From NCBI GenBank assembly GCA_028705565.1, contig JAQWDH010000006.1, forward strand, positions 1-59,779: a stretch of 59,779 bases of DNA. The letters are read 5' to 3'. The DNA is from Patescibacteria group bacterium. GTDB lineage: Bacteria; Patescibacteriota; Patescibacteriia; Magasanikbacterales; GWA2-37-8. Shown in pieces: positions 1,199-59,660 of this stretch (its first letter is position 1; each line of letters opens with the position of its first letter). The position numbers were made by a program, and so were the translations under genes. The notes under the pieces are model-generated. The model saw only the letters and a program-made list of their open reading frames with translations, was not told the DNA's origin and made no database searches.

Positions 1199-3265
1199 AT
1201 GAAAAAAATCGTTGAAGGAACGATTAAAGTTTTGATTTACCTTACTTTTTTCGCGCCTTTGGTAGTATTGCCGTCTTCTTATATCTTTCCTTTTATTGTT
1301 CCGAAAATATTGCTTTTCAGGTCATTATTGGAACTGATGGCAGGAGGATATGTGTTGCTTTTAATCGTAAATTGGCGTGAATACAAGCCGAAATTCACTG
1401 TTTTGAATTTTGTTATGGCGGCTTTTTTGTTTAGTTTCGCCATATCCACATTTGCCGGAGCGGACGCTTATCACAGTTTTTGGGATAATCACGAGCGCAT
1501 GCTCGGACTTTTTACGATTATTCATTACATAATTTATTACTTTATTTGTTCCGCGGTGTTGAAAAATTGGAAAGATTGGAACCTGGCGTTGAAAATTTTT
1601 TTGGTTGCCGGTTCTTTGGTGATGATTTTGGGTTTGGTCCAAATCAAAGACCCATATTTTTTGTTAAACCAGGGAAGCCCAAGAATATCAAGCACATTGG
1701 GCAATCCTATTTATGTCGGCGGTTACGGGCTGTTTTTAATTTTTGTTTCTTTTCTTCTTTTTATAAAAGAAAAATCAAAAGTTTGGCGAGCGGTTGAAGC
1801 GGCGATGTGCGTGTTGGCGTTTTTCGGAATGCTTTATAGCGGGACAAGGGGTTCTTTGCTGGGATTTTTTGCCGGAATAGGATTTTTAACATTCGGATAC
1901 GCTTTGATTTTAAAAAATTATCCAAAAATCAGAAAAATTTTATGGGTGATAATAGCGGCGGTTTTATTATCGCTTGGAACTTTTTATTTTTATCGCCAAA
2001 CGAATTTTGTGCGCGACATACCGACATTGGGACCTCTTTTAAACACTTCAATCGGAGGAACGGTCACTACTCGTTTTATTGCATGGAACATAGCCATGGA
2101 AAGTTGGAAAGAGCGGCCGATTTTTGGCTGGGGGCCGAATAATTTTTTTTACGCTTTCAATAAATATTACAATCCGAAATCATTGGAATTCGGTTACGGA
2201 GAAACATGGTTTGACAACGCTCATAATATTATTCTAAACACCTTAGCTGTTCAGGGCGTTTTCGGTGTGGTGGTCTATTTGTTTATTTTTATCGCCGCTA
2301 TAACAGTGTTGTGGCAGAATAAAGAATTAAAACAAAAAAATATTCATATCGTTGTCGCGGGGTCGGCGTTTTTAGTCGCTCATTTGATACAAAATATAAC
2401 AGTTTTTGAAAATCCGACGTCGTATCTTTATTTTATGTTTTGGCTGGCGATGATAAATCGTTTTTCTTTTTTTGAATTAAAGCCGTCCGAAGAAACAGAG
2501 GCGAATAAAAATAAATTACAGAAAGAAGAATCAATAAATAGCGATAAAAATATCGGAGCCGGAGTTTTGTTGTTCGTTTGCGTTTCCGCCGTCTTTTTTA
2601 TTTTTATTTTTAATATCCAACCCGCGCGGGCGAATCAAAAGACATTTCAAACGTTAAATTTATTAGGCACGAATTTAAACATGGGTTTGACCGCCGCAAA
2701 CGACGTTTTGGCTTTCAGCTCGCCTCATATTGATGACATAAGAATTGACATAGCTAGGTCGGCTTTGCAAATTCTTAACGCTTATCAAAATCAAATTAGC
2801 CGCGCGCAAGCTGAAGAAATTTTTAAAATCGTGTATTATCCGATGAAAGAAAATATCACCCTGCACCCGTTGGATATCAGAAACAATCTTGTTTTGGCGC
2901 AATTATTGCAAATAGAAGCGATGGTTAAGAATGATGCAAAACTTATGGTGGAAGCGCGAGACCTTTTGATGGAAGCATTGCGTTTTTCTCCGAAACGGCA
3001 ACAGCTTTTATACACAATTTCATCCATTGAATACCAATTGGGGCGATGGGAAGAGTCGGTGGCTTATTTGGAAAGCGCTATCAATGATAATCCAAATATA
3101 AGCGAGAGTTATTGGCGTTTGGCTTACGCGTATCAATTGATGGATAAAATGGATAAGGCGATGGAGGTTGTGAATTTAGCGAAAGAAAGGAATGTTATTT
3201 TTGAAGAAAAGGGTCAGGCGATAATTGATGATATCGTTGCCAAATCGCAAAAAATGAAAAAATAG
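1199..3265 (+). CDS. O-antigen ligase/polymerase (Wzy_C) family polytopic membrane protein with C-terminal TPR-like repeats
   Basis: The N-terminal ~430 aa have at least 10 hydrophobic spans plus the family-typical loop ...MLYSGTRGSLLGFFAGIGF... and ...WFDNAHNIILNTLAVQGVFG.... The C-terminal ~200 aa are soluble helical repeats (...LGRWEESVAYLESAINDNPNISESYWRLAYAYQLMDKMDKAMEVV...). Confidence 0.75.
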   Translation: MKKIVEGTIKVLIYLTFFAPLVVLPSSYIFPFIVPKILLFRSLLELMAGGYVLLLIVNWREYKPKFTVLNFVMAAFLFSFAISTFAGADAYHSFWDNHERMLGLFTIIHYIIYYFICSAVLKNWKDWNLALKIFLVAGSLVMILGLVQIKDPYFLLNQGSPRISSTLGNPIYVGGYGLFLIFVSFLLFIKEKSKVWRAVEAAMCVLAFFGMLYSGTRGSLLGFFAGIGFLTFGYALILKNYPKIRKILWVIIAAVLLSLGTFYFYRQTNFVRDIPTLGPLLNTSIGGTVTTRFIAWNIAMESWKERPIFGWGPNNFFYAFNKYYNPKSLEFGYGETWFDNAHNIILNTLAVQGVFGVVVYLFIFIAAITVLWQNKELKQKNIHIVVAGSAFLVAHLIQNITVFENPTSYLYFMFWLAMINRFSFFELKPSEETEANKNKLQKEESINSDKNIGAGVLLFVCVSAVFFIFIFNIQPARANQKTFQTLNLLGTNLNMGLTAANDVLAFSSPHIDDIRIDIARSALQILNAYQNQISRAQAEEIFKIVYYPMKENITLHPLDIRNNLVLAQLLQIEAMVKNDAKLMVEARDLLMEALRFSPKRQQLLYTISSIEYQLGRWEESVAYLESAINDNPNISESYWRLAYAYQLMDKMDKAMEVVNLAKERNVIFEEKGQAIIDDIVAKSQKMKK

Positions 3266-3280
3266 CGAGATAAAAAATTT

Positions 3281-4321
3281 ATGGCGGAAGGAAATAAAAA
3301 TTTAATAATAATCACGCACGGCAACATCGGAGGAGCCCAGAAGTCGGTGTTTTATTTGGCAAAAAAATTAAAGCTGGAAAACAGTGAAGTCACGGTCGGA
3401 TTCGGAGGAGGAGAGTGGCTGCGAAATAAATTGGAAGAAAGCAAGATTTCTTTTCATCTTTTTGCTCGGCTCGCGCGCGGCGCGAATCCATTTAAAAACT
3501 TTTTTTTTATTTTTGAAATAAAAAAGTTTTTGGATGATAATTTTTTCAGCAATGTCTATATTAACAGCAGTAACGCTTTGGCCGGCGCTTTAGGCGCGAA
3601 GCTATCAGAGTCCAAACCGCGCGTAGCGTTCATTTTTCACGGGCTTTCAGTTTTAGACCCGAATTACAAAGCGAATTTAATAATAAAAATTATTTATTGG
3701 TTTTATTTTAAGTTTTTTTTATTATTTGTTGATGAGCCGGTTTTTGTGTGCCAAAGCAATTTGGAAATCGCGCGTAAATTATTTTTGGTGAAAAAAGCCG
3801 TTGTTTTACGCAACGAAATATCGCCAGAAGATATTCGATTTTTTACAAAAGAAGACTCTAAAAAAATTATCCGCGATAAAATTCACGAAAATTTGGAAAA
3901 TAAATTTTTAATCGGGTCAATCGGCAGATTGGACTACGCCAAGAATTACGAATTTTTGATAAATATTTTTTCTGAAATTTTAAAATTTAAAAATAACGCG
4001 GTCGGTTTGATAATCGGAGAGGGAAAAGAAAGAAAAAAATACGAAGAATTGATAGCAAAAAACGGGTTGAAAGAAAAGTTTTTTTTGGTTGGTGAAATCA
4101 AAGACGCGGAAAATTTATTAAAGGCGTTTGATATTTTTGTATTGCCTTCCAGATATGAAGGATTGTCGTTCACTTTGCTTGAAGCCAAAGCCGCGGGAAT
4201 TCCGATTATAGCGAGTGATGTCGGATGCAATAAAGAAGCGATTGGCGAAGCGGGGATTGTTTATCGTTTTGACGATAAAGATGAATTTTTAAACGCAATA
4301 AAAAAATCATTCCATAATTAA
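3281..4321 (+). CDS. Glycosyltransferase family 4 (GT-B, Glycos_transf_1)
   Basis: C-terminal EX7E-type motif ...FVLPSRYEGLSFTLLEAKAAGIPIIASDVGCNKEAIG.... Size is 346 aa. Confidence 0.8.
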   Translation: MAEGNKNLIIITHGNIGGAQKSVFYLAKKLKLENSEVTVGFGGGEWLRNKLEESKISFHLFARLARGANPFKNFFFIFEIKKFLDDNFFSNVYINSSNALAGALGAKLSESKPRVAFIFHGLSVLDPNYKANLIIKIIYWFYFKFFLLFVDEPVFVCQSNLEIARKLFLVKKAVVLRNEISPEDIRFFTKEDSKKIIRDKIHENLENKFLIGSIGRLDYAKNYEFLINIFSEILKFKNNAVGLIIGEGKERKKYEELIAKNGLKEKFFLVGEIKDAENLLKAFDIFVLPSRYEGLSFTLLEAKAAGIPIIASDVGCNKEAIGEAGIVYRFDDKDEFLNAIKKSFHN

Positions 4322-4375: not shown

Positions 4376-5953
4376 ATGAATGATAAAAAACAAAAAACTA
4401 TTTTAGTAACAGGGGGGGCGGGGTTTATCGGCTCGCATCTTTGCGACCGCCTTATCGGAATGGGGAATAAAGTTATTTGTGTTGACAGTTTTTTTAGCGG
4501 CAGAAAAGAGAATATTAAGCATCTTTTGGATAATAAAAATTTTACTTTTATAAAACACGATATTCGCCGACCTTTGCGTTTAAATGGAGAAAAAATAGAA
4601 AGAATTTACAATTTGGCGTGTCCTGCGTCTCCGGTACAATATCAGTTTGACCCGATGTTGACTTTGGAAACAAATATTTTGGGTGTAGGTAATATGCTTC
4701 AATTGGCTCGCCGTCTTGGAGCCAGGTTTTTGCAAACATCCACGTCAGAAGTTTACGGCGATCCGCTGGAACATCCGCAAAAAGAAATTTATTATGGCAA
4801 TGTTAATACTCTTGGAGAAAGAGCGTGCTATGATGAAGGAAAAAGAGCGGCCGAAACTCTCTGTAAAGATTATTATATTGAGCATGGCGTGAACGCGAGA
4901 ATAGTCCGTATTTTCAACACTTACGGTCCGCGCATGATGTTTAACGACGGGCGCGTTTTGTCAAATTTTATTTTGCAAGCTTTATTGAATGAAGACATAA
5001 CTGTTCATGGAGACGGAGAGCAAACGAGAAGTTTTATGTATGTTGACGACTTAACTAGAGCGCTTGTGTCAGTGATGGAAAAAGACGGATTGGATTATAA
5101 TCCGATAAATCTCGGCAATCCTGATGAAAGGACGATAAAAAATATGGCCGAGTTGGTAAAAACAAAAACAAATTCGCAAAGCAGGTTGATTTATTTGCCT
5201 TTTGAGAGTTTACACGGTAGAATTGGCGATCCGCAGCGCAGGTGTCCGGATATTACTCGCGCCAAAGTGCTTTTAGAATGGGAGCCGGCTATAAATTTGG
5301 AAGATGGACTTAAAAAAACGATTGAAGATTTTAGAAATCGTTTGAAAAACTTACCGCGTGTTTTGGTTTTCAGCACGTCGTATTTGCCGATATGCGGTCC
5401 TGCGGAAGAAGCGGTAAAAAATATTATTGACAGGGCGCAAGGTTGGGAGTTTGATATTATTACCGCTAAATTTGATTCCAAGCTCGCTTCAAAAAGTCAT
5501 AACGGAAGAGAACATATATACCGTCTCGGATTTGGCAATAGATGGGACAAGTTTCTTTTGCCGGTCAGAGCGGCTTTTTTTGCCAGAAAACTGAGTAAAA
5601 AATATGATTACCAGTCGGCTTGGGCGATAATGGCGAGCTATGGCGCGTTCGCGGCCGTAATATTTTCTTGGCTCACAAGGAGCAGAACGCCGTTTCTTTT
5701 GAGCGTTTATGAAGGCGATATTACGGAAAAAATGACGAAAAGAGGAATGTGGTTATTTTGGATTTACAAAATTATTTTTCGCAAAGCTTGCAGGTGGCAG
5801 GTGGTCGGCAAAATAAATGAACAACAAAAGGCGTGGCTGGAGGAAGAAAAAAAAGCGCAGACGGTAAAATTTGACGGAGAATGGGATTTGTTGGCGAAAA
5901 GGACAAAGGAAATGTTTCAAGAGCTTGAGATTTTATCAACTAGATCACAATAA
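4376..5953 (+). CDS. UDP-glucuronate decarboxylase (UXS-type SDR) fused to a stand-alone GT4 N-terminal half-domain
   Basis: Residues 1-~322 match UXS nearly motif for motif (ILVTGGAGFIGSHLCDRL, TSTSEVYGDPLEHPQ, ACYDEGKRAAE, RIFNTYGPRM..NDGRVLSNFI, GDGEQTRSF.YVDD). Residues ~329-510 (VLVFSTSYLPICGPAEEAVK...AWAIMASYGAFAAV...YEGD) are colinear with the N-terminal half of the next GT4, but the Glycos_transf_1 catalytic half is absent. Confidence 0.85.
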   Translation: MNDKKQKTILVTGGAGFIGSHLCDRLIGMGNKVICVDSFFSGRKENIKHLLDNKNFTFIKHDIRRPLRLNGEKIERIYNLACPASPVQYQFDPMLTLETNILGVGNMLQLARRLGARFLQTSTSEVYGDPLEHPQKEIYYGNVNTLGERACYDEGKRAAETLCKDYYIEHGVNARIVRIFNTYGPRMMFNDGRVLSNFILQALLNEDITVHGDGEQTRSFMYVDDLTRALVSVMEKDGLDYNPINLGNPDERTIKNMAELVKTKTNSQSRLIYLPFESLHGRIGDPQRRCPDITRAKVLLEWEPAINLEDGLKKTIEDFRNRLKNLPRVLVFSTSYLPICGPAEEAVKNIIDRAQGWEFDIITAKFDSKLASKSHNGREHIYRLGFGNRWDKFLLPVRAAFFARKLSKKYDYQSAWAIMASYGAFAAVIFSWLTRSRTPFLLSVYEGDITEKMTKRGMWLFWIYKIIFRKACRWQVVGKINEQQKAWLEEEKKAQTVKFDGEWDLLAKRTKEMFQELEILSTRSQ

Positions 5954-5974: not shown

Positions 5975-7117
5975 ATGCTCAAAAATATTTTAATATTTTC
6001 AACAGCGTACCTACCTTTTGTTGGTGGCGCGGAATTAGCGGTTAAGGAAATTACTGATAGAATTCAGGACCATGAATTTGACATGGTAACAGCTAAAATG
6101 GACGCGAAGTTACTAAATGTTGAAAAAATCGGGAATATTACTGTCCACAGAATTGGCATAGGGCATCCTTTTTTTGATAAAATTTTTTTGGTTTTGTTTG
6201 GGCATTATTTTGGTTTAAAACTGCATAAAATAAAAAAATATGACGCTGTTTGGGCGATAATGGCGAGCTATGGCGGTTTCGCGGCTTTGAGTTTTAAGTT
6301 AAAAACCGGCGTTAAATTTTTATTGACTTTACAGGAAGGCGACCCAATAGAATATATTTTGAAAAAAGTTCGTTTCGTTCGGCGCAGATTTTATTTGATT
6401 TTTAAAAAAGCGGACGGTTTGCAACCAATAAGCAATTTTTTAATGAATTGGGGGAAAAAAATGGGGTTTGTCGGCAACGTGTCCGAGGTGATACCAAACG
6501 GAGTGGATGTCGCTCGTTTTACAAAAGATTATCCGCGAGAAGAAATGAACGAGATAAGAAAAAGTTTCGGTTTCGCGGAAAATTCCGTGATTTTGATTAC
6601 AGCTTCGCGTTTGGTGATAAAAAACGGTATTGAAGATGTGATAAAGGCGTTGCCATTATTGCCGGATAATGTTTGTTTCGCTATTTGCGGAGTAGGAGAG
6701 TTGAAAGGAAAACTTGAAAACGCGGTAAAGGAATTGAATTTGGAAAAAAGAGTGAAATTTTTAGGAAATAAATCGCATGAAGAATTGCCGAAAATTTTGA
6801 AAGCCTGCGATATTTTTATTCGCCCGTCTCTTTCCGAAGGACTCGGAAATGCGTTTTTGGAAGCAATGGCCGCCGGGTTGCCGACCATAGGGACATTGGT
6901 TGGCGGTATTCCGGATTTTTTGCGCGACGGGGAAACCGGATTTGTTTGCGAATTGAACAATCCAAAAAGCGTCGCGGAAGCTGTTAAAAAAGCAATGAAT
7001 TTATCGCCTGAAAATAAGTCTGCTGTTTGCAATAACGCGATGAATATGATTAACGAAAAATATAATTGGGATAAAATAGCGGTTAAGATGAGAAATTTAT
7101 TTGAACGGCTTGTTTAA
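5975..7117 (+). CDS. Glycosyltransferase family 4
   Basis: N-terminus ILIFSTAYLPFVGGAELAVKEI... and C-terminus ...FIRPSLSEGLGNAFLEAMAAGLPTIGTLVGGIPDFLRDGETGF... (EX7E region). Confidence 0.85.
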   Translation: MLKNILIFSTAYLPFVGGAELAVKEITDRIQDHEFDMVTAKMDAKLLNVEKIGNITVHRIGIGHPFFDKIFLVLFGHYFGLKLHKIKKYDAVWAIMASYGGFAALSFKLKTGVKFLLTLQEGDPIEYILKKVRFVRRRFYLIFKKADGLQPISNFLMNWGKKMGFVGNVSEVIPNGVDVARFTKDYPREEMNEIRKSFGFAENSVILITASRLVIKNGIEDVIKALPLLPDNVCFAICGVGELKGKLENAVKELNLEKRVKFLGNKSHEELPKILKACDIFIRPSLSEGLGNAFLEAMAAGLPTIGTLVGGIPDFLRDGETGFVCELNNPKSVAEAVKKAMNLSPENKSAVCNNAMNMINEKYNWDKIAVKMRNLFERLV

Positions 7118-7164
7118 AAACGATTCTTTTGAAGTCAAAATAATTTTGGTTCAGTATTAAGTTT

Positions 7165-8334
7165 ATGAATTCGCTTAGAATTTTAATCACAACAGGTATT
7201 TTTCCGCCAAGCATTGGCGGGCCGGCGAGAATCGTGGAACAGTTGTCGTCTGATTTGTCTTTGAAAAATATAAAAGTAAGCGTGCTTGCTTTTGGAGAAG
7301 AAGACGGCAAGATTCGCAGTTACAATGTTTTTAAATGCGAAAGCAAAATAAATTTCGCTTTATCGGTTTGGCGGCTTGGTAAAGAAGCCGATGTAATTTA
7401 CACGTTTGATTTATACACAGCCGGATTTTTTTCGTGGCTTATCGGAAAAGTTATTTTGCGAAAAAAATTAATTGTGCGTTTCGCTGGCGACAGCGCATGG
7501 GAATCGGCGTATAATCAAGGATTGACAAAAGATGATATTTTGACTTTTCAAGAAAAATTTTACGGAATAAAAATTTGGATGATGAAAAAAGCCAGAAGTT
7601 TGATTTTGAAAGGCGCTGATAGCGTGGTGTCGGTTAGTTATTTTATGAAAAATTTGGCGGAAAAAATCGGAGTTGAAAAAGAAAAAATTGAAGTGATATA
7701 TAATTCCGTGGATTTTATTGATTTTAAAAATTTAAATTGTGAAACCGAAATATTGCAAGATAAATTTGGTTTAAGAAATTTAAAAATAATAGTTACAGCA
7801 GGGCGTTTTGTGCCATGGAAAGGCATTGATGGTTTGATTAAAGCGATTGATTTATTAAAATCAGAGCGACAATTTTCGTTCAAACTTTTAATAATAGGGG
7901 ATGGACCTGATTTTGGAAATTTAAAAGCGTTGGTTGACGAGAAAGGATTAAACGACGAAATTTTATTTACAGGCAAAATTCCACAAGACAAGATGTTCGC
8001 TTATTTGAATTTAGCCGATGTGTTTGTTTTAAATTCAAAATACGAAGGGCTGTCGCATGTTTTATTGGAAGCGTTGCGTGCGGGAAAGCCAATTGTCGCG
8101 AGCGATTGCGGAGGAAATTCGGAAGTGGTTGAAAACGAAAAAAACGGTTTATTGGTTGAATATAACAATATAAAACAATTATCCGAAGCCGTCAAAATAA
8201 TATTGACGGAAGAAAAGTGGCGCGCGTCCGAGTTTAAAAAAATTTGCGTTGAAAGTTTAAAAAAGTTTAGCTGGCAAAACGTGGTTGAACGAACAGTTAA
8301 TGTTTTTGATAAAATTAAACAAAAGCATGAATAA
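7165..8334 (+). CDS. Glycosyltransferase family 4
   Basis: RILITTGIFPPSIGGPA... at the N-terminus and ...FVLNSKYEGLSHVLLEALRAGKPIVASDCGGNSEVVENEKNGLL... at the C-terminus. Confidence 0.85.
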   Translation: MNSLRILITTGIFPPSIGGPARIVEQLSSDLSLKNIKVSVLAFGEEDGKIRSYNVFKCESKINFALSVWRLGKEADVIYTFDLYTAGFFSWLIGKVILRKKLIVRFAGDSAWESAYNQGLTKDDILTFQEKFYGIKIWMMKKARSLILKGADSVVSVSYFMKNLAEKIGVEKEKIEVIYNSVDFIDFKNLNCETEILQDKFGLRNLKIIVTAGRFVPWKGIDGLIKAIDLLKSERQFSFKLLIIGDGPDFGNLKALVDEKGLNDEILFTGKIPQDKMFAYLNLADVFVLNSKYEGLSHVLLEALRAGKPIVASDCGGNSEVVENEKNGLLVEYNNIKQLSEAVKIILTEEKWRASEFKKICVESLKKFSWQNVVERTVNVFDKIKQKHE

Positions 8335-9772
8335 AATTTTACTGATCAATCCTCCGTTTAATATCGCGAAAGAAAATTACGACAGCTCAGTTTCCGTGGG
8401 TCTGCTTAGCATTGCCACATATTTGGATAGTAAAGGTTTTTTTGTGGAAATTGTTGACGGCGCGCGGCAAAAAAATTACGAAGAATTGATAAAACAAAAC
8501 GCGATTAATTGCGATTGGGCCGGTATTTCGGTGATGACAATGCAAGTTCCGAACGCGTTGAAAATCAGCCGTCTTATCAAAGAAATGAATCCTAAATGTA
8601 AAATTGTTTGGGGTGGAACGCACCCGACTTTTTTTGCGCGTCAAACATTGTTTCACTCACTTGTTGATATTGTTTGTTTGGGAGAAGGCGAAATAACTTT
8701 TTATGAACTTGTCGCGAACAAAATTTTATCGGAAATAAAAGGCATAGCTTATAAAAAAAACAATGAGATTTTTATCAATCCTCCGCGTGAACTCCACGAC
8801 CCTTCGCAAATGCCGCTTTTTAATTGGGATTTGGTTTCAAAAGAAATTTTAGAAAAACTTTATCTGATACCGTCGCTCACTTCTCGCGGCTGTCCGCATC
8901 AATGCGCTTTTTGCATTAACGCGATTTTAAAAAATAATTGGAGGGCTAGGACAGCGGAACAAGTTTTGCGCGATTTGGAAATTATAAAACAAAAAAAATA
9001 TTTTTCGGATAAAAAACTAAGATTTTGGGATGAAAATTTTTTTGTGGACATCGTCAGAGCCAAAGCCATTGTTAAAGGAATGATTGATAAAAATTTAAAT
9101 ATCCCGTGGGAAACCACTGTTAGAGCCGATTATATGCGAAATGGAATGATAGACGATGAATTCATGTCTAAATTAAAACAGTCAGGTTGTTATCTTTTGT
9201 CGTTTGGGGCCGAATCCGGCAGTTCACGCGTTTTAAAGAAGATAAACAAAGGCGTAGCCCCGAACCAAATTGTTGATTCGGCCAAGCTTTGTTTAAAATA
9301 CGGCATTGTGCCGCAATATTCTTTTATGATAGGTTTGCCCGGTGAAACAAGAGAAGATATGAACGCTACTTTAAAATTAATAGACATATTGGTCAAACTG
9401 AGCGATAAGGTTCAAATTTTGGGTCCGCAGGCGTTTCGTCCTTATCCGGGTTCGGATTTGTATGAAGAATGTCTTGCGTCCGGTTGGCGCGCTCCGCAAT
9501 CTTTGGAAGAGTGGTCTCGTTTGGCGGAAAATCAATTGAGTTATTTATCAGTGAAAAATTTTCCTTGGGTAAAAGACAAAGATTTTGTGGAATCTATGGA
9601 AGCCTATACGCGATTTGGAGCTCATAGCATAAAAAGCGCGATGGGTTCCAGTGTTAAAGCGCAAAAATGGTTGAAGCTGATTTTTGTTTTGATTTGCCAA
9701 TTGCGCTGGAAAATGAAATTTTTCGCGTGGCCGATTGAGTATAAAATCGCGAAAAAATTTGTAATAAAATGA
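8327..9772 (+). CDS. B12-binding-domain radical SAM protein (paralog A)
   Basis: The N-terminal Rossmann-like part is typical of COG1032/class B rSAM (MNKILLINPPF..., VWGGTHPTFF, CLGEGEITFYEL). Cluster motif is SRGCPHQCAFC (CX3CX2C), followed later by GLPGET. The ATG at 8327 overlaps the upstream stop (ATGAATAA); the track start at 8285 is a TTG inside the previous gene. Confidence 0.85.
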   Translation: MNKILLINPPFNIAKENYDSSVSVGLLSIATYLDSKGFFVEIVDGARQKNYEELIKQNAINCDWAGISVMTMQVPNALKISRLIKEMNPKCKIVWGGTHPTFFARQTLFHSLVDIVCLGEGEITFYELVANKILSEIKGIAYKKNNEIFINPPRELHDPSQMPLFNWDLVSKEILEKLYLIPSLTSRGCPHQCAFCINAILKNNWRARTAEQVLRDLEIIKQKKYFSDKKLRFWDENFFVDIVRAKAIVKGMIDKNLNIPWETTVRADYMRNGMIDDEFMSKLKQSGCYLLSFGAESGSSRVLKKINKGVAPNQIVDSAKLCLKYGIVPQYSFMIGLPGETREDMNATLKLIDILVKLSDKVQILGPQAFRPYPGSDLYEECLASGWRAPQSLEEWSRLAENQLSYLSVKNFPWVKDKDFVESMEAYTRFGAHSIKSAMGSSVKAQKWLKLIFVLICQLRWKMKFFAWPIEYKIAKKFVIK

Positions 9773-9773: not shown

Positions 9774-10772
9774 ATGAGCCAATTGATGATAAGTTTAGAC
9801 AAAAATATTTTCAATTTTGATTCCGCCGCGGCGAGACGCATGATTGAATATGGAGAAAAAAACGAGCTTTTTATTGTTATTCCGGATAATGATAAACGAT
9901 ATTTGGATTTAAGCGCGAAAGTCCATGTATGGGGAACGGGAGGTTCAAAACTTACGCAATTTTTTCGTTTATTATACACAGGCAATAAAATAATTCATAA
10001 TTCAAGATTCATAATTCAAGATTCATTAATTACCACTCAAGACCCGTTTTTTACCGGTTTAGCAGGTTTGTTATTGAAGCGAAAAGAAACAACTTTTGAG
10101 ACGCAAGTTCATGGCGATTTTTACGGTTCGGATTATTATCAAAAAAGCGGACTGACAAACAAGATTCGTTTTTATATAGGAAAATTTTTATTGCCTCGCG
10201 CGGATAAAGTAAGAACCGTAAGCGAGCGCGTAAAACAAAGTTTAATAAAAATCGGCGTTAAATCTGAAAAAATAGAAATTAAACCAATTCAGGTTGATTT
10301 TGAAAAGATAAAAAATTATCAGCCGAAATTTGATTTACATCAAAAATATCCAGATTATGAAAAAATATTTTTGGTTTTAGGACGGTTTGACGCAGTTAAA
10401 AATATCAGATGGCTGATAGAAGTATTTTGTGAAGTTGTAAAACAAAAAAATTATTTATTATTAATTATCGGAAGCGGACCGGATGGGCACAATATAACGA
10501 CGCACGCCACTCGTTGCATGTTGCGTAAAAACATAAAATTTGAGCCATGGACAAACGATCCGATAAGTTATATAAAGACAGCGGATTGCCTTTTGTTCCC
10601 AAGTTTGAGCGAGGGATACGGATTGGCGGCGATGGAAGCGAGTGCCGCCGGAACGCAGGTGATAATGACGGATGTTGGTGTGGCAAATTATGAATTAAAA
10701 CTCGGACCGAAAGTCAAAATCGCGCCGGTGGGCGATAAAGAAAAATTTATTCAGGAGATTTTACAAATATGA
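9774..10772 (+). CDS. Glycosyltransferase family 4-like
   Basis: C-terminal motif ...LLFPSLSEGYGLAAMEASAAGTQVIMTDVGVA.... The N-terminal half is divergent. Confidence 0.7.
   Translation: MSQLMISLDKNIFNFDSAAARRMIEYGEKNELFIVIPDNDKRYLDLSAKVHVWGTGGSKLTQFFRLLYTGNKIIHNSRFIIQDSLITTQDPFFTGLAGLLLKRKETTFETQVHGDFYGSDYYQKSGLTNKIRFYIGKFLLPRADKVRTVSERVKQSLIKIGVKSEKIEIKPIQVDFEKIKNYQPKFDLHQKYPDYEKIFLVLGRFDAVKNIRWLIEVFCEVVKQKNYLLLIIGSGPDGHNITTHATRCMLRKNIKFEPWTNDPISYIKTADCLLFPSLSEGYGLAAMEASAAGTQVIMTDVGVANYELKLGPKVKIAPVGDKEKFIQEILQI
9993..10020 (+). repeat. Two perfect tandem copies of a 14-nt unit (ATTCATAATTCAAG) inside the GT4-like CDS, followed by a degenerate third copy
   Basis: Direct reading gives 9993-10006 = 10007-10020 = ATTCATAATTCAAG. 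10021 onward starts ATTCAT again and then diverges. Confidence 0.8.
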
Positions 10773-49785: not shown

Positions 49786-49856
49786 CGGCTTATCCGATAT
49801 TCCGTTTCCTTTTCATTTTAAATATGAGAACGAAGGAATTTTGGGTAAGCCGTTTT
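49786..49856 (+). terminator. Long imperfect hairpin followed by TTTT (candidate intrinsic terminator or RNA element)
   Basis: CGGCTTATCCGATATTCC (49786-49803) pairs with GGAATTTTGGGTAAGCCG (49835-49852) at 17 of 18 positions (15 Watson-Crick, 2 G-T, 1 mismatch) around a ~30-nt loop, and TTTT follows at 49853-49856. It sits in the largest intergenic gap of the locus (127 nt). Confidence 0.45.
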
Positions 49857-49895
49857 CAGTGTTATCAATTTTTAAAAAAATAATCATGTCAAATT

Positions 49896-50885
49896 ATGAA
49901 AGAAACTGACATTAGAGATGATAAATACGCTGAAAAAATCAAATATTACGCCACTGAAGATAAAAAAGTACTAATGAAACACGAGAAAGATTTTGTTAAA
50001 GTCTCTTGTCCGGCTTGCGGAAAATTAGACGCAAATTTTGCCTTTATAAAATTAAGAATTCAGTATTTAGAATGTAATAACTGTAGAACTATTTATGCCA
50101 GTCCGCGCCCGACACAGGAGATATTAAAAGAGTATTACCAAAAATCAAAAAATTATCAATTTTGGAATAAATACGTTTTTCCAACTTCTGAAAAAGCGCG
50201 GCGGGAAAAAATATTCAAACCTCGAGTTGATTTGTTAATAAAATATTGCAAGCTTTCTGGTATTAAATCAGGAACACTTATTGAAGTGGGGGCGGGTTTT
50301 GGGACTTTTTGCGAAGAGGTTAAAAGTAGAAATTTTTTTAAGCGAGTAATAGGAATTGAGCCAATTCCTGATTTGGCTGAAAGTTGTCGCAAAAAAGGTA
50401 TTGAAATCATTGAAAAACCAGTTGAGGAGGTGAAGTTAAAAAGTATCAAAGCTGATGTCATTGCGTCTTTTGAAACATTAGAACATCTTTTTAACCCCAG
50501 GGATTTTATCTTATCTTGCAGCAAGCTTTTAAAAAAGGGAGGATTGCTTGTTTTGTCTTGTCCAAATATGTTTGGATTTGACACTTTAGTCCTGAGGGAA
50601 ATGTCAAAAAGCGTGGGAGGGGAGCATATTAATATGTTTAATCCAGAATCAATAAAGATATTAATGCAGGATTGCGGTTTGGTAGCGCTTGATGTAAAAA
50701 CTCCGGGAAAATTAGACGCAGAACTGGTACACAAGGCCATCATAATAGATAATTTTAATATGGATGATCAATATTTTTTAAAGCATCTTTTAGTTGATCG
50801 TTGGGATGATATGGGAGATAAATTTCAGAAATTTTTATCAGACAATTTGTTATCTTCCCACATGTTCTCGGTGGCAAAAAAATAA
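49896..50885 (+). CDS. Class I SAM-dependent methyltransferase with N-terminal Cys4 zinc-ribbon
   Basis: CPACGK...x...CNNCRTIYASPRP, then motif I LIEVGAGFGTF and ...VIASFETLEHLFNPRDFI..LLKKGGLLVLSCPN.... Confidence 0.75.
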   Translation: MKETDIRDDKYAEKIKYYATEDKKVLMKHEKDFVKVSCPACGKLDANFAFIKLRIQYLECNNCRTIYASPRPTQEILKEYYQKSKNYQFWNKYVFPTSEKARREKIFKPRVDLLIKYCKLSGIKSGTLIEVGAGFGTFCEEVKSRNFFKRVIGIEPIPDLAESCRKKGIEIIEKPVEEVKLKSIKADVIASFETLEHLFNPRDFILSCSKLLKKGGLLVLSCPNMFGFDTLVLREMSKSVGGEHINMFNPESIKILMQDCGLVALDVKTPGKLDAELVHKAIIIDNFNMDDQYFLKHLLVDRWDDMGDKFQKFLSDNLLSSHMFSVAKK

Positions 50886-50888: not shown

Positions 50889-51818
50889 ATGATTAAATTA
50901 TTATTTTTAGGGTGTAATTTTGACCAACTGCCATATTTAAAAATTGCTAAACAGAAGGGCTATTATATTGTTGGCACAGATTTAAACAACCATGCCCCTG
51001 GAATTAAATATTTAGATAAATACTATCGGGTTGGTTATGAAGACGCGAAAGGGTTGGTTGATTTTGGCAAAAAAGAAAAATTTTCATATGCTGATAAAGT
51101 TTTTACAGCTTCCAGCCAGTTTGCTTACATCGGAGCCAGCGCTTTCGCAAAAAAATTTGGAATTAAATTTATCAGCCCAAAGACAGTTGATTATTGTTTA
51201 AACAAGATTAAACTTTATCAATTATTTAAAAAGCAAAACTTGCAAGTTCCGGAATGGGCAATAGTTAAGAGGCAAAAAGAGCTGAAAAAATATGTTAAAA
51301 AGTGGGGTGTTTGTTATCTTAAATCTGATTATGGCAAGTCTCCACATTACTGTTATAGAATTGCAGGCGGTCATTTTCCCACATTGCCCTTAAAACGCGA
51401 TCGTTATTTTAGAAAATATTTTATTATTCAAAAAGAAATTATAGGTAATCAGTTCAGAATTAATTGGATAAACGGACAATTGATTTGTTTTTTTAAAGTT
51501 TCCGATACCATATCCGTGCCCGCTCATTTTATCGATTTTGGCGATAGAATATGTAAAAACATTAGAAGTTTAATTTTTAAATTAGGCTTACAGAATCATT
51601 TGGTTAAATTTGATATTATTTATAATAAGCAAGGGTGTTATTTTATAGACATTGGTTTAGAACCGCCGATGAGACTAAAATTATATTTGGAATATTTAGG
51701 TTATAATTTTGAAAAAATATATTTGGAACAAGTTGTAGAAAATTTTTACAATTTTCCACTGTCGGATAATCTTCCAAATGATTTAATAATAAAGAATAAA
51801 ATTGTTAAAAAATTATAA
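50889..51818 (+). CDS. ATP-grasp domain protein (putative carboxylate-amine ligase)
   Basis: Pre-ATP-grasp Rossmann-like N-terminus (IKLLFLGCNFDQLPYLKIAKQKGYYIVGTD), and central ...WGVCYLKSDYGKSP... and ...FIIQKEIIGNQFRINW... strands typical of ATP-grasp. Confidence 0.55.
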   Translation: MIKLLFLGCNFDQLPYLKIAKQKGYYIVGTDLNNHAPGIKYLDKYYRVGYEDAKGLVDFGKKEKFSYADKVFTASSQFAYIGASAFAKKFGIKFISPKTVDYCLNKIKLYQLFKKQNLQVPEWAIVKRQKELKKYVKKWGVCYLKSDYGKSPHYCYRIAGGHFPTLPLKRDRYFRKYFIIQKEIIGNQFRINWINGQLICFFKVSDTISVPAHFIDFGDRICKNIRSLIFKLGLQNHLVKFDIIYNKQGCYFIDIGLEPPMRLKLYLEYLGYNFEKIYLEQVVENFYNFPLSDNLPNDLIIKNKIVKKL

Positions 51819-51829: not shown

Positions 51830-52876
51830 ATGAATTTAATTATTATAAATTCTGGTCAAAAATTTTTTTTGAAGAATTGTCTAAACAGTTTAATAAATAC
51901 CACTAACTTGGTAAATTTTGATATTCATGTAATAAAAGAAAGAGAATACAGAGAAGTAACTTTTAATACCATTTTAGAAGGATATACTAGTCAAGATATT
52001 TTAATTTTCGGTGATGATATTGTTTTTACAAAAGGTTGGTTTGAATTTTTGATGGCAAATAAAAAAAATGGTGACATTATTGGTTTTTCCATGCTTTATC
52101 CAGGGACGGATAAAGTTCAAGATACTGGTTATGATTTAGTAAAAATTGATAACGAAATTATTTTAAAACCTAAAAACAGGGGAAAAAAGAAAGAAAAAAT
52201 AAAAAAGTTTAATTTTAGAGAATGCGATTCTTCAAGCGGCTGCGCATTGTTTATAAAAAAGAATGTGGCAGAAAAGATTCGTTCCATGCCAGTTAACGGT
52301 ATGAACCGCTGGGGAGAGTTTTTATACATGAATGAAGCTAAAAAGAAAGGATTTAAGGTCATAGTTCTTGGCCATTATTTATACCATCATGGTAAGAGTA
52401 CTAAAATTAACCCGAATAAATTATTGAGCTCGGAAAGTTATATGTTGGAACAAAAAATGTGGAGGAAAATTGTAAAACAATATATTAACAAAGAACAAAT
52501 CAAAATTCAATTAAAGAAAGTTTTGTCAAAAAAAATCAGGAGCATACTATTATCAAAAAAGAAAATTTTATTTTATGGAGCAGGCACAGTATCGGAATTT
52601 ATTTTAAAAGAATTAAAAAGCGAGTTAGATTTAAGGTTTGTTGATATTTGTTCCGGGTTGTCTGAAGAAAAAGAAAAGATTTTTTGCGGAAAAAAAATCA
52701 GTTTCTATAAAAATGTTGATTTTGGCAATTATGATATAGTAATAGTTAGCGTTTTACAAAAAGAAAAAGTAATTTTTGATTTAATCAAAAATTTTATTGA
52801 TAAAAAAAAGTTATATTATGTGGCTCAAGAAACAATAGGTTGTTTAATAAAATTTGGAATAAAACAATATGCATAA
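51830..52876 (+). CDS. Hypothetical protein, weak GT2-like N-terminal domain plus C-terminal Rossmann-like segment
   Basis: MNLIIINSGQKFFLKNCLNSLINTT..., ...ILIFGDDIVFTKGWF... (DXD-like) and ...GCALFIKKNV.... The C-terminus reads ...KKILFYGAGTVSEFILKEL.... Assignment is tentative. Confidence 0.35.
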   Translation: MNLIIINSGQKFFLKNCLNSLINTTNLVNFDIHVIKEREYREVTFNTILEGYTSQDILIFGDDIVFTKGWFEFLMANKKNGDIIGFSMLYPGTDKVQDTGYDLVKIDNEIILKPKNRGKKKEKIKKFNFRECDSSSGCALFIKKNVAEKIRSMPVNGMNRWGEFLYMNEAKKKGFKVIVLGHYLYHHGKSTKINPNKLLSSESYMLEQKMWRKIVKQYINKEQIKIQLKKVLSKKIRSILLSKKKILFYGAGTVSEFILKELKSELDLRFVDICSGLSEEKEKIFCGKKISFYKNVDFGNYDIVIVSVLQKEKVIFDLIKNFIDKKKLYYVAQETIGCLIKFGIKQYA

Positions 52877-53846
52877 TTATGTTATTGTTGTTGGCGGCGG
52901 AAAAGACAGCGTTTTTGTTATAGATAAAATTCATAGAATGGGGTTAAAAGCGATTGTTGTTGATAAAAACCCAGTCGTTCCTGGTATGATTTGCGCTGAT
53001 GAAAAAATTGTTTCCAGCACTTATGAAAGCGAACCAATCATAAAAAAACTGAAAAAGTTCATAGCAAGCGGAAAAAAGATAGTTGCCATAGTAACAAGGT
53101 CGTCTGGAATCCCGGTTATAACTACAGCAAAGATAGCCGACGCTTTGAATTTGTTCGGTGCCGGTGAAGACGCCGCAAGAGTACTCACATATAAAAATTT
53201 ATTTACTGATTTATGTTATGATAACGGTATACCCACCGCCAGAATTAAAATGTCAGATTTTAAAAAAAGAAATAAATATCTAACACGTTATTTTCCTTGC
53301 GTGATAAAGCCTGCGTTGGGATTAGCTGGAAAAGTTGACGTTAGGATGATAACAAAAGATTTAAAAATTGGTTCAGTTATAACTGCTGTCAAAAAAAAAT
53401 CTCTAAACGGGAAGATTTTGATAGAAAGATATATCCCAGGCATAGATATAAGTTTATTTTCAGTTGTGTTTAATGGTGTCTTATGCCCATGCTTTTTTTT
53501 GAGAGAGCTAAACAAGTTTGACAAAGAAGGAAAAATTAAATTTAAAGGTTTTTGTTTTTGTAGTAAGTTAAAGAATATTGAAAAGAAAAGGATGATTAAA
53601 ATAGCGCAAAAAGTTGTCAAAGTAGCCGATGTTGGATTCAGTCCGTTTCTTATATCTTTTAGATTAACTAAAGAAGGGCTGGCGGTTCCGATTGAAGTTA
53701 ATCTAGATTTTGGAGGAGAAAATGTTTTAGAAGAGTTGATTTTTTCGAGAATTGATTTTGATTTTATTGAATGTTATTTAGAATCCATAATCCATAAAGC
53801 CAAGCCTGATATTCCTAAAATTTTTTATAAAAATTTTAGGAATTAA
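52869..53846 (+). CDS. ATP-grasp domain protein
   Basis: VIVVGGGKDSVFVIDKIHRMGLKAIVVDKNP (pre-ATP-grasp), ...FPCVIKPALGLAGKVDVRMI..., ...ILIERYIPGIDISLFSV.... 8-nt overlap with the upstream gene. Confidence 0.55.
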   Translation: MHNYVIVVGGGKDSVFVIDKIHRMGLKAIVVDKNPVVPGMICADEKIVSSTYESEPIIKKLKKFIASGKKIVAIVTRSSGIPVITTAKIADALNLFGAGEDAARVLTYKNLFTDLCYDNGIPTARIKMSDFKKRNKYLTRYFPCVIKPALGLAGKVDVRMITKDLKIGSVITAVKKKSLNGKILIERYIPGIDISLFSVVFNGVLCPCFFLRELNKFDKEGKIKFKGFCFCSKLKNIEKKRMIKIAQKVVKVADVGFSPFLISFRLTKEGLAVPIEVNLDFGGENVLEELIFSRIDFDFIECYLESIIHKAKPDIPKIFYKNFRN

Positions 53847-53859: not shown

Positions 53860-54789
53860 ATGAAAAAAGAATCTTTAAATACAATAAAAAAAATATATGA
53901 AAGAGGTGAAAATATAATCCGTTACCTCAAAGACAATGAAATTAAAAAAAATAATTCAGACGAGATGATAATGATTAGTTATGATTTCCAAAGCGGAAGC
54001 TATGTAAAAGATGTAAAAGAAAATTTTGAATTTAATGAAAAATATACCAGAGCTATTTCAAAAGTGATTAATAATATAGGCGTAGAGTACGACTCTATAC
54101 TTGAGGCCGGAGTTGGTGAAGCAACAACTTTGGCAAATTTAATCCCAAAATTAGCAACTAAACCTAAAAATGTGTATGGTTTTGATTTGGCTTGGTCCAG
54201 AATTAGGTTTGCAAAAGAATATATAGAAGAAAAAAAAATTTTGGGTTCGCATATTTTTGTTGGTAATCTTTTTAATATCCCATTAGCCGATAGCTCAATT
54301 GATGTTGTTTACACATCGCATTCCATAGAACCTAATGGCGGTAGAGAAAAAGAAGCCCTGCTAGAATTATTTAGAGTCTCAAAAAAATATTTAGTACTGA
54401 TAGAACCTGCGTATGAATTCGCAAGTATGGAAGCGCAGAAAAGAATGGAAAGGCACGGTTATATAAAGAATCTGTATTCCACGGCCGTTTCCATCGGATT
54501 AAATATAGTAGAGCATAGTTTATTTGACGTATGTTCAAACCATCTTAACCCAACAGGAATTTTGATAATTAAAAAAGAGTTTAATGATAATAGGATTGTT
54601 TCAAATCCGTTTATTTGTCCAGTTACAAAAACCACCTTGGAATTAATAAAAAATTCATATTTTACAAAAGATGGTTTATTAGTGTATCCAATTATTGACG
54701 GAGTCCCCATCTTGCTAAAAGAGCACGCTGTCGTCGCTACACATTTTACAGATGATTTTAAAATTATTAATAGAGATAACGATTGTTAA
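53860..54789 (+). CDS. Class I SAM-dependent methyltransferase with C-terminal Trm112-like zinc-ribbon-type tail
   Basis: Motif I ILEAGVGEATTL, and ...IDVVYTSHSIEPNGG.... The C-terminal ...FICPVTKTTLELIKNSYFTKDGLLVYPIIDGVPILLKE resembles the Trm112/UPF0434 fold. Confidence 0.7.
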   Translation: MKKESLNTIKKIYERGENIIRYLKDNEIKKNNSDEMIMISYDFQSGSYVKDVKENFEFNEKYTRAISKVINNIGVEYDSILEAGVGEATTLANLIPKLATKPKNVYGFDLAWSRIRFAKEYIEEKKILGSHIFVGNLFNIPLADSSIDVVYTSHSIEPNGGREKEALLELFRVSKKYLVLIEPAYEFASMEAQKRMERHGYIKNLYSTAVSIGLNIVEHSLFDVCSNHLNPTGILIIKKEFNDNRIVSNPFICPVTKTTLELIKNSYFTKDGLLVYPIIDGVPILLKEHAVVATHFTDDFKIINRDNDC

Positions 54790-54857: not shown

Positions 54858-56591
54858 ATGAATCACAAATCAAAAAAATCTTTACCTTTACATAAAAAAA
54901 TGAAGCTTACAGATTATATTGTAGAATTTTTAGCAACACACGGCGTAGAATGCATGTTTGTTTTTACAGGAGGCGCAATAGCGCACTTTTTAGATTCTGT
55001 ATTTACTCGCAATCTTCAACATGGCGACATAAAACCTGTTTGCGTAATGCATGAACAGGCTGGGTCAATGGCGCTTGATGGTTATACGCGCGCCACGGGA
55101 AAAATTGGCGCTATGGCTGTTACCAGCGGTCCAGGCGCTACTAATTTATTAACAGGTATCGCTTGTTCTTATTATGACTCAATTCCGGGAATATATTTTA
55201 CAGGGCAGGTTAGAACTTGGGAACTCTGCCAAAGTAAACAGCGGCAGATTGGTTTTCAGGAAACAGATATTGTAAGTATCGCCAAACCCATAACTAAATA
55301 CGCAGTTACAATTACTGACCCGGCTACTGTTCGTTATGAGATAGAGAAAGCCTTATTTTTAGCCCAATCAGGCCGCCCCGGTCCGGTTTTAATTGATTTG
55401 CCGATGAATATACAATGGGCTGAAATAGATCCAAGCAAATTAAAATCTTATAAACCAGAACAAAAACCGCCGGAGAGCCACGAAAGAATTAACAAAAAGA
55501 TAGATCTTTTGGTTAAATGGCTTCAGCAATCTAAACGGCCAATAATTATTGGCGGTGGCGGAGTACGGAATGCCGGAGCAACCAATGAACTGCTTAATTT
55601 AGCTAGATTAAGCCGCATACCGGTGGCTGTAACTTTTAATGGAGTTGATACTATTGTTCATGATAATCCTCTTTATTCCGGAGTGATAGGCACCATGGGA
55701 AATCGCGGAACAAATACTTCTATCAAAGAAAGCGATTTAGTTTTGGCGATTGGCACCCGCTTATCTTTGCGTCAGGTAAAGTCAAAACCAAAAGAATTTG
55801 TTTCTCAAGGAAAATTAATTCATGTTGATATTGATCCTAATGAATTGAATCAACTCGTACCGACTGATTTATCTTTTGCTTGCGATGCTAAAGAATTTTT
55901 AATTCTTTTGATAAATAGAATCAAAAAGGCAGGCTGTCCAAAGTTTTCGAATTGGGCAAAACAAACACGAAAAAATTTTGAAGATAATCCTTTTTGCAAG
56001 CCAGAGTACTATTCGCAGAAAAAAGGCGTAAACCCATATGTTTTTATGAATACTATTTCCGAGCAGATGGACGATGATGATATTTTAATTGCCGATGCCG
56101 GTCAAAATGTTATGTGGGCTATGCAAGCGGTTGAGGTTAGGGCAAAACAGAGGCTTTTTACTGCCGGAGCGCATTCCCCAATGGGTTATTCGCTTCCCGC
56201 AGCAATTGGAGTGGCGGCGTATTGCAAGGATTCTCGCCATGTTATTTGTACGATAGGCGATGGCGGTGTTCAATTAAATATTCAGGAGTTGCAAACAATT
56301 TTTTCATATAAATTGCCGGTAAAAATTTTTGTGATGAATAATCATTCTTACGGCGCGATTGTAGATTTTCAGGATGCTAATCTTGGGAAGCGCCATTTTG
56401 CCTCTTCTACAAAATATGGTTATACGATTCCGGACTTGTTGGCTATCGCTCGCGCTTATAAAATTCCGGCGATGGAAATTAATTCACAGCGCGGATTGGC
56501 AAAAAAAATAAAATCGGTTCTTAACAGTAAAGGGCCAATTTTTTGCAATGTAGACATGGGGTCGCGAACATATGTTACGTTGGATGTTTAA
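54858..56591 (+). CDS. Thiamine diphosphate-dependent enzyme, acetolactate synthase large subunit-like (possible YerE-type sugar branching enzyme)
   Basis: LTDYIVEFLATHGVECMFVFTGGA, HEQAGSMALDGYTRATGK.GAMAVTSGPGATNLLTGIA (Pyr domain), and IGDGGVQLNIQELQT...MNN (ThDP GDG-X-NN motif). Confidence 0.85.
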   Translation: MNHKSKKSLPLHKKMKLTDYIVEFLATHGVECMFVFTGGAIAHFLDSVFTRNLQHGDIKPVCVMHEQAGSMALDGYTRATGKIGAMAVTSGPGATNLLTGIACSYYDSIPGIYFTGQVRTWELCQSKQRQIGFQETDIVSIAKPITKYAVTITDPATVRYEIEKALFLAQSGRPGPVLIDLPMNIQWAEIDPSKLKSYKPEQKPPESHERINKKIDLLVKWLQQSKRPIIIGGGGVRNAGATNELLNLARLSRIPVAVTFNGVDTIVHDNPLYSGVIGTMGNRGTNTSIKESDLVLAIGTRLSLRQVKSKPKEFVSQGKLIHVDIDPNELNQLVPTDLSFACDAKEFLILLINRIKKAGCPKFSNWAKQTRKNFEDNPFCKPEYYSQKKGVNPYVFMNTISEQMDDDDILIADAGQNVMWAMQAVEVRAKQRLFTAGAHSPMGYSLPAAIGVAAYCKDSRHVICTIGDGGVQLNIQELQTIFSYKLPVKIFVMNNHSYGAIVDFQDANLGKRHFASSTKYGYTIPDLLAIARAYKIPAMEINSQRGLAKKIKSVLNSKGPIFCNVDMGSRTYVTLDV

Positions 56592-56624: not shown

Positions 56625-57380
56625 ATGTTTAAGAAAAATATGACTAAGAACGCTATAATTACAGGAGGGAGCAGGGGCATAGGAAAAGCGATTGCTTTAG
56701 CCATGGCTAAAGCTGGCGTGAATGTAGTTTTGACATATCAAAAAAATAAATCAAAAGCTCTTGCTGTAGTAAAAGAAATAGAAAAAAGCGGGCACAAAGC
56801 AATGTGTGTAAAATTAAATCAAAAAAACAGAGAGGATATCCGCAGAGTTATCAGGGACGCTCGTAAAAGATTTGGCGAGATTAATATCTTGGTAAATAAT
56901 GCCGCTGTTGCTCAAAAAAAACCATTGGAAATGATAAACGATAAAGATTGGGACAATGTGTTGGCGATTAATTTGCGAGGGCCGTTTATTTTTTGTCAGG
57001 AGATATTGCCTTATATGAAAAAACAAGGTTGGGGTAGAATTGTAAACATAAGTTCAATTGGCGGACAGTGGGGAGGTATGAATCAAATTCATTATGCCGC
57101 GGCAAAAGCAGGTTTAATCAATTTAACCAAGTCCGTGGCAAAACTTTATTCAAAATATGGCATTACAAGTAACGCCGTTGCCCCCGGTTTGGTAGCAACA
57201 GACATGACAACGCGCGCATTAAAAATAGATATTAAAAAAATAAAATTTGAACATATACCAATAGGTCGAATTGCGATTCCTGAAGAGATAGCAGGCGTTG
57301 TCGCTTTTTTGTGTTCAGAAGAAGCGTCTTATATAACTGGGCAAACTATAAACATAAATGGCGGCATGCTATTTAATTAA
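56625..57380 (+). CDS. Short-chain dehydrogenase/reductase, FabG-like
   Basis: AIITGGSRGIGKAIA, NNAAV, YAAAKAG (YxxxK), NAVAPGLVATDM, ITGQTININGG. Confidence 0.85.
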   Translation: MFKKNMTKNAIITGGSRGIGKAIALAMAKAGVNVVLTYQKNKSKALAVVKEIEKSGHKAMCVKLNQKNREDIRRVIRDARKRFGEINILVNNAAVAQKKPLEMINDKDWDNVLAINLRGPFIFCQEILPYMKKQGWGRIVNISSIGGQWGGMNQIHYAAAKAGLINLTKSVAKLYSKYGITSNAVAPGLVATDMTTRALKIDIKKIKFEHIPIGRIAIPEEIAGVVAFLCSEEASYITGQTININGGMLFN

Positions 57381-57388: not shown

Positions 57389-58600
57389 ATGCGTGAAAAT
57401 ATTTTAGAACGTGATTCCTACTTAATCGTGCTTGGAGCGGGGTCTCAACAAGTTTCTGCTTATAAAACAGCGTCTCGACTAGGTTTGAAAACTTTAGCCA
57501 TTGATTATAATCCAAAGGCCAAAGCAAGAGATTTGGCTGATAAATTTTTATTAGCAAGCATAAAAGATAAAGTAGAATGTATATCTAAACTTAAAAAATT
57601 AAATCTTCATTATTCAGGAGTTACTACCATTGGCGTTGAGGTTTCTCCTGTAGTAAGCGCCATTGCTAAAGAATTTAATTTATCAAGCGTTTCTGAAACA
57701 GTCGCCTTTAATACGACCAATAAATGCGCTCGAGCAACGGTGCTGCAAAAAGCAGGAATACCGGCGCCAAAGTTTGAAATTATCAATGAGCGTTCTTTGC
57801 CAAAAATTATTAATTATCCGCTTATCATAAAACCGTCAGACAATTCCGGCTCTAGGGGTGTTAGGATTGTAGAATCTGAAAAGGAATGGTTTGAAGCATA
57901 CGACGATGCCAAATCTATTTCCGGTGATGGCAAAGTCATTGTAGAGGAGTTGCTACAAGGTGATGAAATATCAATTGAAGGGTTTGTTCTTGACGGAAAA
58001 ATGATTATTGTCGGTTTTTCTGATAGAAATTATATTTCTAGTTATCATCCATATTTTATGGAAGATGGCAGCAGCAGTCCAACCAACCTGCCGCATTCTG
58101 TAATAGTTGAAGCAGAAAAAGTTTTTGCGAAAGCGGCTTATTCCTTAGGTGTTACGGAAGGTCCTTCAAAGGGAGATCTTATTGTTACCAAGGAAGGAGT
58201 TAAAGTATTGGAAATTACATCTCGTCTTAGCCCGGGATTTTCTTTGTTACTTCCGCACACAGAAGGCACGGATCCGCTTGAAGCGACAATACGTTGGGCC
58301 GTTAACATGCATATTCCACAATCTTTGCTTCAGCCCAAATTTCACAAAGCCATGGCGCATCGTTTCTTTTTTCATCAGCCCGGTAAAGTTACAAAAATAA
58401 CAGGACTTGAAAATTTAAAAAAACAACCAGGAGTTATAGAGGTTATTTTTTTACGAGATTTTACAATCGGCGACATATTAGAACCACCCAATAACATTAA
58501 TCGTCTTTTCTATATTTATACAGTGGCCGATAATCGTGATACGGCTATCAGATTGGCCGAGGAAGCATTAAGTACGGTGAACATACAAGTTGATAAATAA
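57389..58600 (+). CDS. ATP-grasp domain protein (carboxylate-amine ligase type)
   Basis: YLIVLGAGSQQVSAYKTASRLGLKTLAIDYNP, YPLIIKPSDNSGSRGVRIV, VIVEELLQGDEISIEGFVLDGKM, GPSKGDLIVTKEGVKVLEITSRLS. Confidence 0.75.
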   Translation: MRENILERDSYLIVLGAGSQQVSAYKTASRLGLKTLAIDYNPKAKARDLADKFLLASIKDKVECISKLKKLNLHYSGVTTIGVEVSPVVSAIAKEFNLSSVSETVAFNTTNKCARATVLQKAGIPAPKFEIINERSLPKIINYPLIIKPSDNSGSRGVRIVESEKEWFEAYDDAKSISGDGKVIVEELLQGDEISIEGFVLDGKMIIVGFSDRNYISSYHPYFMEDGSSSPTNLPHSVIVEAEKVFAKAAYSLGVTEGPSKGDLIVTKEGVKVLEITSRLSPGFSLLLPHTEGTDPLEATIRWAVNMHIPQSLLQPKFHKAMAHRFFFHQPGKVTKITGLENLKKQPGVIEVIFLRDFTIGDILEPPNNINRLFYIYTVADNRDTAIRLAEEALSTVNIQVDK

Positions 58601-58601
58601 T

Positions 58602-59660
58602 ATGAGGTTTCTTTTTATTTATCCTAATTCCTGTAAATTCGGGACATTCCATATAGGAATTGGTATCCTCTCTTCCATTTTAAAAAAATATGGGCATGTA
58701 GTGGATCTATTTGACACTACTTTTATACCCGAGGGTTGCGAAGAATATGAATTTGAAAAAAAAGTAATTGAATTCAAACCCGACATGTTGGGTTTTTCTG
58801 TCAAGACTGTTGATTGTCTTTTAGCAGAAAAACTTTACGATAGAGTGGCTAAAATGAATATTCCTGCCGTGGTTGGTGGACATCACGCCACGTTAGAGCC
58901 AGAGAGTACGGCTAAAAAATTTGGGATGGTCCTTCGGGGTGAGTGTGAAATTGCCTTGCCTTTGCTCTTGGATAAATTTAGTAAAGGAGAATCAGTTTTG
59001 GATACACCTAATTTGTATTTGAAGAAAGGGGACATATTTATTAAAAATGATTTAGCGCCTCTTTTTGAGAATCTTGATGAATTGCCGTTTCCCGATTGGA
59101 AATTATTTGATAAAAGAAATTATTTTGAAAGCCCTTACTTAGATAGCGCCTTAGAGGGTTCAAAATGTCTTGGTGTTTTTGAAAAATCTCGTGGGTGTTT
59201 CTTCAGCTGTTCTTTTTGTTCTATACCAAAAGAAAGAGAAATATATGAAGGCAAGGGCGAGTGGCATCGTGAAAAGAGCGCTAACCGCCTCGCCGATGAG
59301 ATACTGGCCTTTAAAGAATTATACCCGCTTGATGCTATCCATTTTATTGATGACATTTTTTTGTCACCTGATAAAAATAAAATGGCGGAATTTCGGGATG
59401 TTTTCAAGACAAGAGTTAAAATCCATTTTACTTCAAGCGAGAGAGCCGAAAGAATTGACCCGGATTTGATGCAAATGTTTAAGGACGCCGGCGGGTATCA
59501 GTTGTGGATTGGGATTGAATCCGGCGACGAGGAATTAAGAATTAAAATGTTAAACCGCAGAATGTCCGATGAAACCCTAATTAAAGCATTCCAGATTGCC
59601 AAAGAATGCGGAGTTAAAACCCGGGCCACCTCTATGCTGGGGTTGCCTAACCAGAGTTAA
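58602..59660 (+). CDS. B12-binding-domain radical SAM protein (paralog G), apparently C-terminally truncated
   Basis: VVGGHHATLEPE and SRGCFFSCSFCSI (CX3CX2C). The ORF stops at ...SMLGLPNQS*, where the paralogs read GxPGE(T/N) and continue for a further ~110-140 aa. It is 352 aa against 450-489 aa for the others. The ATG at 58602 is used; the track start is a TTG. Confidence 0.6.
   Translation: MRFLFIYPNSCKFGTFHIGIGILSSILKKYGHVVDLFDTTFIPEGCEEYEFEKKVIEFKPDMLGFSVKTVDCLLAEKLYDRVAKMNIPAVVGGHHATLEPESTAKKFGMVLRGECEIALPLLLDKFSKGESVLDTPNLYLKKGDIFIKNDLAPLFENLDELPFPDWKLFDKRNYFESPYLDSALEGSKCLGVFEKSRGCFFSCSFCSIPKEREIYEGKGEWHREKSANRLADEILAFKELYPLDAIHFIDDIFLSPDKNKMAEFRDVFKTRVKIHFTSSERAERIDPDLMQMFKDAGGYQLWIGIESGDEELRIKMLNRRMSDETLIKAFQIAKECGVKTRATSMLGLPNQS

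Follow-up and report, generated by a model that had tools for sequence, protein, structure and literature searches.

A hypervariable surface-glycan island carrying eight radical SAM genes in Candidatus Magasanikbacteria

The 48 genes at positions 1199-59660 of the window analysed here, a whole contig of 59,779 nt from a genome of Candidatus Magasanikbacteria (CPR), belong to a hypervariable surface-glycan island, and we infer that the whole run builds and decorates one complex surface sugar chain. The island lies between conserved flanks, with the WaaL/PglL-type gene g1 on one side and UDP-sugar dehydrogenase/epimerase genes on the other, and in relatives the same flanks hold differing content, from ~1 kb to 41 kb. 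The initial annotation had described a single-strand locus of very large size and tight packing, given over almost wholly to glycan assembly and tailoring, in a small-genome, low-GC organism, and this description stands, the host being an uncultured groundwater bacterium with a tiny genome. Its tallies were matched almost exactly by Pfam and NCBIfam: Pfam returned seven GT4 enzymes, two GT-C (PMT_2) proteins, one O-antigen-ligase-like protein (Wzy_C plus TPR), an ABC exporter, two cytidylyltransferases (CTP_transf_3), eight radical SAM proteins (seven with a B12-binding domain, one with SPASM), five methyltransferases and three ATP-grasp proteins, one of them weak. Four GT2-type enzymes had been counted where Pfam gives three, and two additional transferases, at 36386 (g30) and 39869 (g32), are GT-B-like.

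All 48 ORFs are on the forward strand, as are all 49 genes of a greedy ORF caller. The run is 98.8% coding, with a median gap of 13 nt; 36 of its 47 gaps measure 30 nt or shorter, and overlaps occur at 16 of the 47 junctions. If same-strand neighbours occur at the frequency of 0.744 obtained, by crude ORF calling, for the 10-kb stretches that precede the g1 orthologs of relatives, then 47 consecutive same-strand junctions have a naive p of ~1e-6. ATGA overlaps were found at all six positions proposed (10769, 14315, 25681, 28782, 35461 and 45808), the last depending on start choice, since public gene calls begin at 45835. The longer overlaps at 12749 and 52869 are likewise present, and that near 8.3 kb exists with any start of the radical SAM gene (8285, 8306 or 8327). 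The original list of gaps longer than 45 nt was correct apart from the omission of 7118-7164 (47 nt), and the public start of g46 at 56640 adds a 48-nt gap upstream of that gene. A gap at 17215-17320, suggested conditionally, disappears because public callers begin g14 at 17201.

The co-directional run exceeds the window, and the forward strand also carries RecQ and the ABC genes upstream. The window end is not the 3′ boundary that had been proposed: the sister-strain locus has five further genes and runs ~7 kb beyond the equivalent point, to rpmA/mraZ. The full locus would therefore span ~66 kb with ~53 genes, which may amount to 5-7% of the host DNA. Could such a run be a chimeric assembly? 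It is not: independent same-species assemblies from ENA, NCBI and Logan are collinear with it at 98-100% identity. Homology to the sister strain stops at 59653, and the terminal 126 nt (59654-59779) have no relation to sister-strain sequence, no match in Rfam and no counterpart among 95 loci compared; the Logan contig terminates at 59682. This junction may reflect a repeat, an insertion or a strain variant. The gene that reaches it, g48 (58590-59660), encodes ~350 of the ~490 residues of its B12-binding radical SAM homologs and is probably a pseudogene; in the sister strain its codon 373 is an in-frame TAG, beyond which the frame runs on to codon 489.

Is this, as was originally proposed, one locus behind one promoter? 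The promoter-like TTGACT-17-TATAAT at 1143-1171 is real, matches the consensus at 11 of 12 positions and is, among intergenic forward-strand matches in the window, the best and the only one of that quality, but promoter-like matches overall occur at chance level (84 vs 74±8, 100 vs 90±8 and 90 vs 76±8). Just upstream, a terminator-like hairpin read directly from the sequence (1067-1096, AAAAAATGGCTT-AACA-AAGCCATTTTTTTT) closes the DrrA/DrrB-type ABC-2 transporter genes (KpsM score only 19 bits) and delimits the island on its 5′ side. The sole 127-nt gap, 49769-49895, holds a long GC-rich hairpin followed by UUUUC (49783-49860; ΔG -38.6 kcal/mol, z -5.5, with 0 of 200 shuffles equally stable). 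Its sequence is unique, conserved in the sister strain and assigned to no Rfam family, and it is a candidate internal terminator or attenuator. Per-gene G+C is mosaic (0.26-0.40) and sub-blocks of the locus recur independently in other genomes. Taken together, a promoter known by its consensus match, an internal hairpin, mosaic G+C and recurring sub-blocks argue for an island built of modules and probably transcribed as several units.

In the pathway we propose, the chain would be assembled in the cytoplasm by seven GT4, three GT2 and two novel GT-B transferases, with pseudaminic-type and Kdo-type CMP-sugars among the donors, exported through a single MsbA/PglK-type ABC exporter, decorated outside by two ArnC-like GT2/GT-C pairs and finally transferred by g1. 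No initiating transferase was found. At its 5′ end the island is anchored by the conserved g1 (1199-3265), which combines a Wzy_C domain (71 bits) and ~12-13 TM helices with a TPR domain at the C terminus, and for which we propose a role as final ligase or O-oligosaccharyltransferase. Its family profile matches an oligosaccharyltransferase (PDB 9rmk, E 3e-7) and WaaL (7tpg, E 1e-6), R217, R292 and H342 are invariant, and full-length orthologs (43-56%) occur in at least 80 Magasanikbacteria/CPR MAGs. The sole exporter within the island is g31 (38072-39865), a type IV ABC half-transporter (TMD-NBD) of the Sav1866/MsbA/HepA/PglK class.

The GT4 enzymes were assigned by Pfam: g2 (3281-4321), g4 (5975-7117), g5 (7165-8334), g7 (9774-10772), g14 (17201-18334), g17 (20783-21928) and g23 (28782-29912). 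Of these, g4 belongs to a backbone block common to 11 relatives, and its residues 2-152 are 42% identical to residues 326-477 of g3 (4376-5953), an NDP-sugar 4,6-dehydratase/epimerase (SDR) fused to a GT4-N-terminal-like domain of ~200 aa; the in-frame fusion recurs in loci L079 and L075, and the sister strain carries an intact copy of g3. Two membrane proteins are of GT-C type, g16 (19416-20756; PMT_2, at least 8 TM helices), a proposed extracytoplasmic transferase using a polyprenyl-phosphate sugar, whose counterpart in L128 lies immediately 3′ of g11-g12 homologs, and g22 (27100-28785; ~11 TM helices), with a PMT_2 score of 24.7 bits, slightly below cut-off. The GT2 enzyme g18 (21922-22890), which has three C-terminal TM helices and aligns full-length to ArnC (185 bits), resembles ArnC/PgfS-type polyprenyl-phosphate sugar synthases, and g27 (32925-34811) is a GT2 fused to a Zn-dependent alcohol dehydrogenase, a fusion shared with a P. 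marisnigri locus (L176, 44% identity).

The initial annotation recognised no characterised pathway in this combination, and as a whole it remains unrecognised: none of the homologous loci or proteins has been assigned to a characterised glycan, close homologues of the island proteins are all unnamed MAG proteins, and our literature search on such loci in CPR found nothing. Parts are recognisable, namely the ArnC-like GT2 and GT-C pairs, a KdsB-like and KpsC-like pair, and a PseB/PseC/NeuB/WbuX set which, judged by sequence, would make an acetamidino pseudaminic-type sugar. That set comprises PseB, an inverting UDP-GlcNAc 4,6-dehydratase (g33, 41319-42311; TIGR03589, 454.6 against a cut-off of 407.75), the PseC aminotransferase (g34, 42326-43480; TIGR03588, 470.6 against 423.5), a PseI-like NeuB-family nonulosonic acid synthase (g38, 47350-48480; Pfam NeuB 264 bits, PseI 321.5 vs a cut-off of 340.25) and a WbuX-type N-acetyl-sugar amidotransferase (g39, 48542-49768; TIGR03573, 311 against 203), which may form the acetamidino group. 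Among them lie a GSA-aminomutase-like class III aminotransferase (g35, 43464-44828), an aldo-keto reductase (g36, 44876-45811) and g37 (45808-47289), a CTP_transf_3 cytidylyltransferase fused to DUF218 that is a candidate CMP-nonulosonate synthetase (PseF score only 31 bits).

The KdsB-like CMP-(3-deoxy-ulosonic acid) synthetase g26 (32121-32897) exceeds the cut-offs of kdsB TIGR00466 (172.7 against 155.2) and PRK13368 (304 against 255), and in at least 12 loci genes of its type immediately precede members of the g30 family. The latter family, largely CPR and uncharacterised (429 cluster representatives at E≤1e-30), is matched by no Pfam model. The g30 protein itself (36386-38044; public start 36416) has one membrane or amphipathic helix and an AF2 model (pLDDT 91) for which Foldseek returns a generic GT-B fold (MurG, TarL, polysialyltransferase, WaaA), and is a candidate CMP-ulosonic-acid transferase. 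The KpsC/WbbB-like (Capsule_synth) GT-B enzyme g32 (39869-41308) is a candidate CMP-ulosonic or nonulosonic acid transferase: its family profile matches KpsC (8fuw/6mgc, E 6e-10), the top TM-scores of its AF2 model (pLDDT 91) are to KpsC and WbbB, and genes of its type adjoin Pse genes in L101, L108 and L118.

Eight radical SAM genes in one island is exceptional, as radical SAM genes occur in only 7 of the 112 loci from relatives, with at most two in any of them, and we know of no sugar-coat pathway that employs so large a set of radical enzymes. With g48, the B12-binding members are g6 (8285-9772, public start 8306; CPHQCAFC), whose only ortholog at the same position is in L039 (70%), g12 (14315-15712; CPGRCTFC), g13 (15745-17214), g21 (25681-27096; CX4CX2C) and g25 (30656-32095), within a g23-g24-g25 block kept in L095 and L096; g15 (18357-19400) carries the SPASM domain. 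HpnJ-like over its full length (261 bits vs a cut-off of 578), g12 is translationally coupled through ATGA to g11 (13602-14318), a small GT2 resembling AglJ/PpgS/ArnC-type polyprenyl-phosphate sugar synthases, and genes of these two types adjoin each other in many phyla. The AprD4-like g9 (11409-12761), with a weak B12-like domain, a non-canonical CX3CX3C motif (C202/C206/C210) and NCBIfam scores below cut-off for both AprD4 (154 bits) and HpnJ (166 bits), is by that likeness a candidate sugar diol-dehydratase. The short SDR reductase that overlaps it, g10 (12749-13570), is a candidate AprD3-like partner, and the pair is kept in L128; AprD4/AprD3 chemistry has been described (PMC5461906).

The remaining tailoring genes include the methyltransferases g8 (SAM-dependent, 10769-11389), g20 (24848-25684), g24 (MetW-like, 29887-30666), g40 (49896-50885) and g44 (53860-54789), and in at least 18 CPR loci a g24 homolog comes immediately after a g30-family gene. 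An AsnB-type glutamine amidotransferase, g19 (22910-24781), is a candidate uronic-acid amidation enzyme, and genes of its type recur beside g18- and g12-type genes in 10 loci. A cyclase/arylformamidase-like hydrolase (g28, 34826-35464) precedes a D-2-hydroxyacid dehydrogenase (g29, 35461-36414), of a type that recurs close to g26 and g30 homologs. Next to the weak ATP-grasp-like g41 (50889-51818) and the ATP-grasp ligase g43 (52869-53846) is g42 (51830-52876), for which family searches including Pfam gave nothing significant. Downstream of these lie g45 (54858-56591), a ThDP-dependent acetolactate-synthase-like enzyme (ALS large subunit 419 bits, below the cut-off of 538), the FabG-like SDR reductase g46 (56625-57380) and an ATP-grasp L-amino-acid-ligase-like enzyme, g47 (57389-58600); in six relatives, g45 homologs (32-37%) come after SDR genes downstream of g1.

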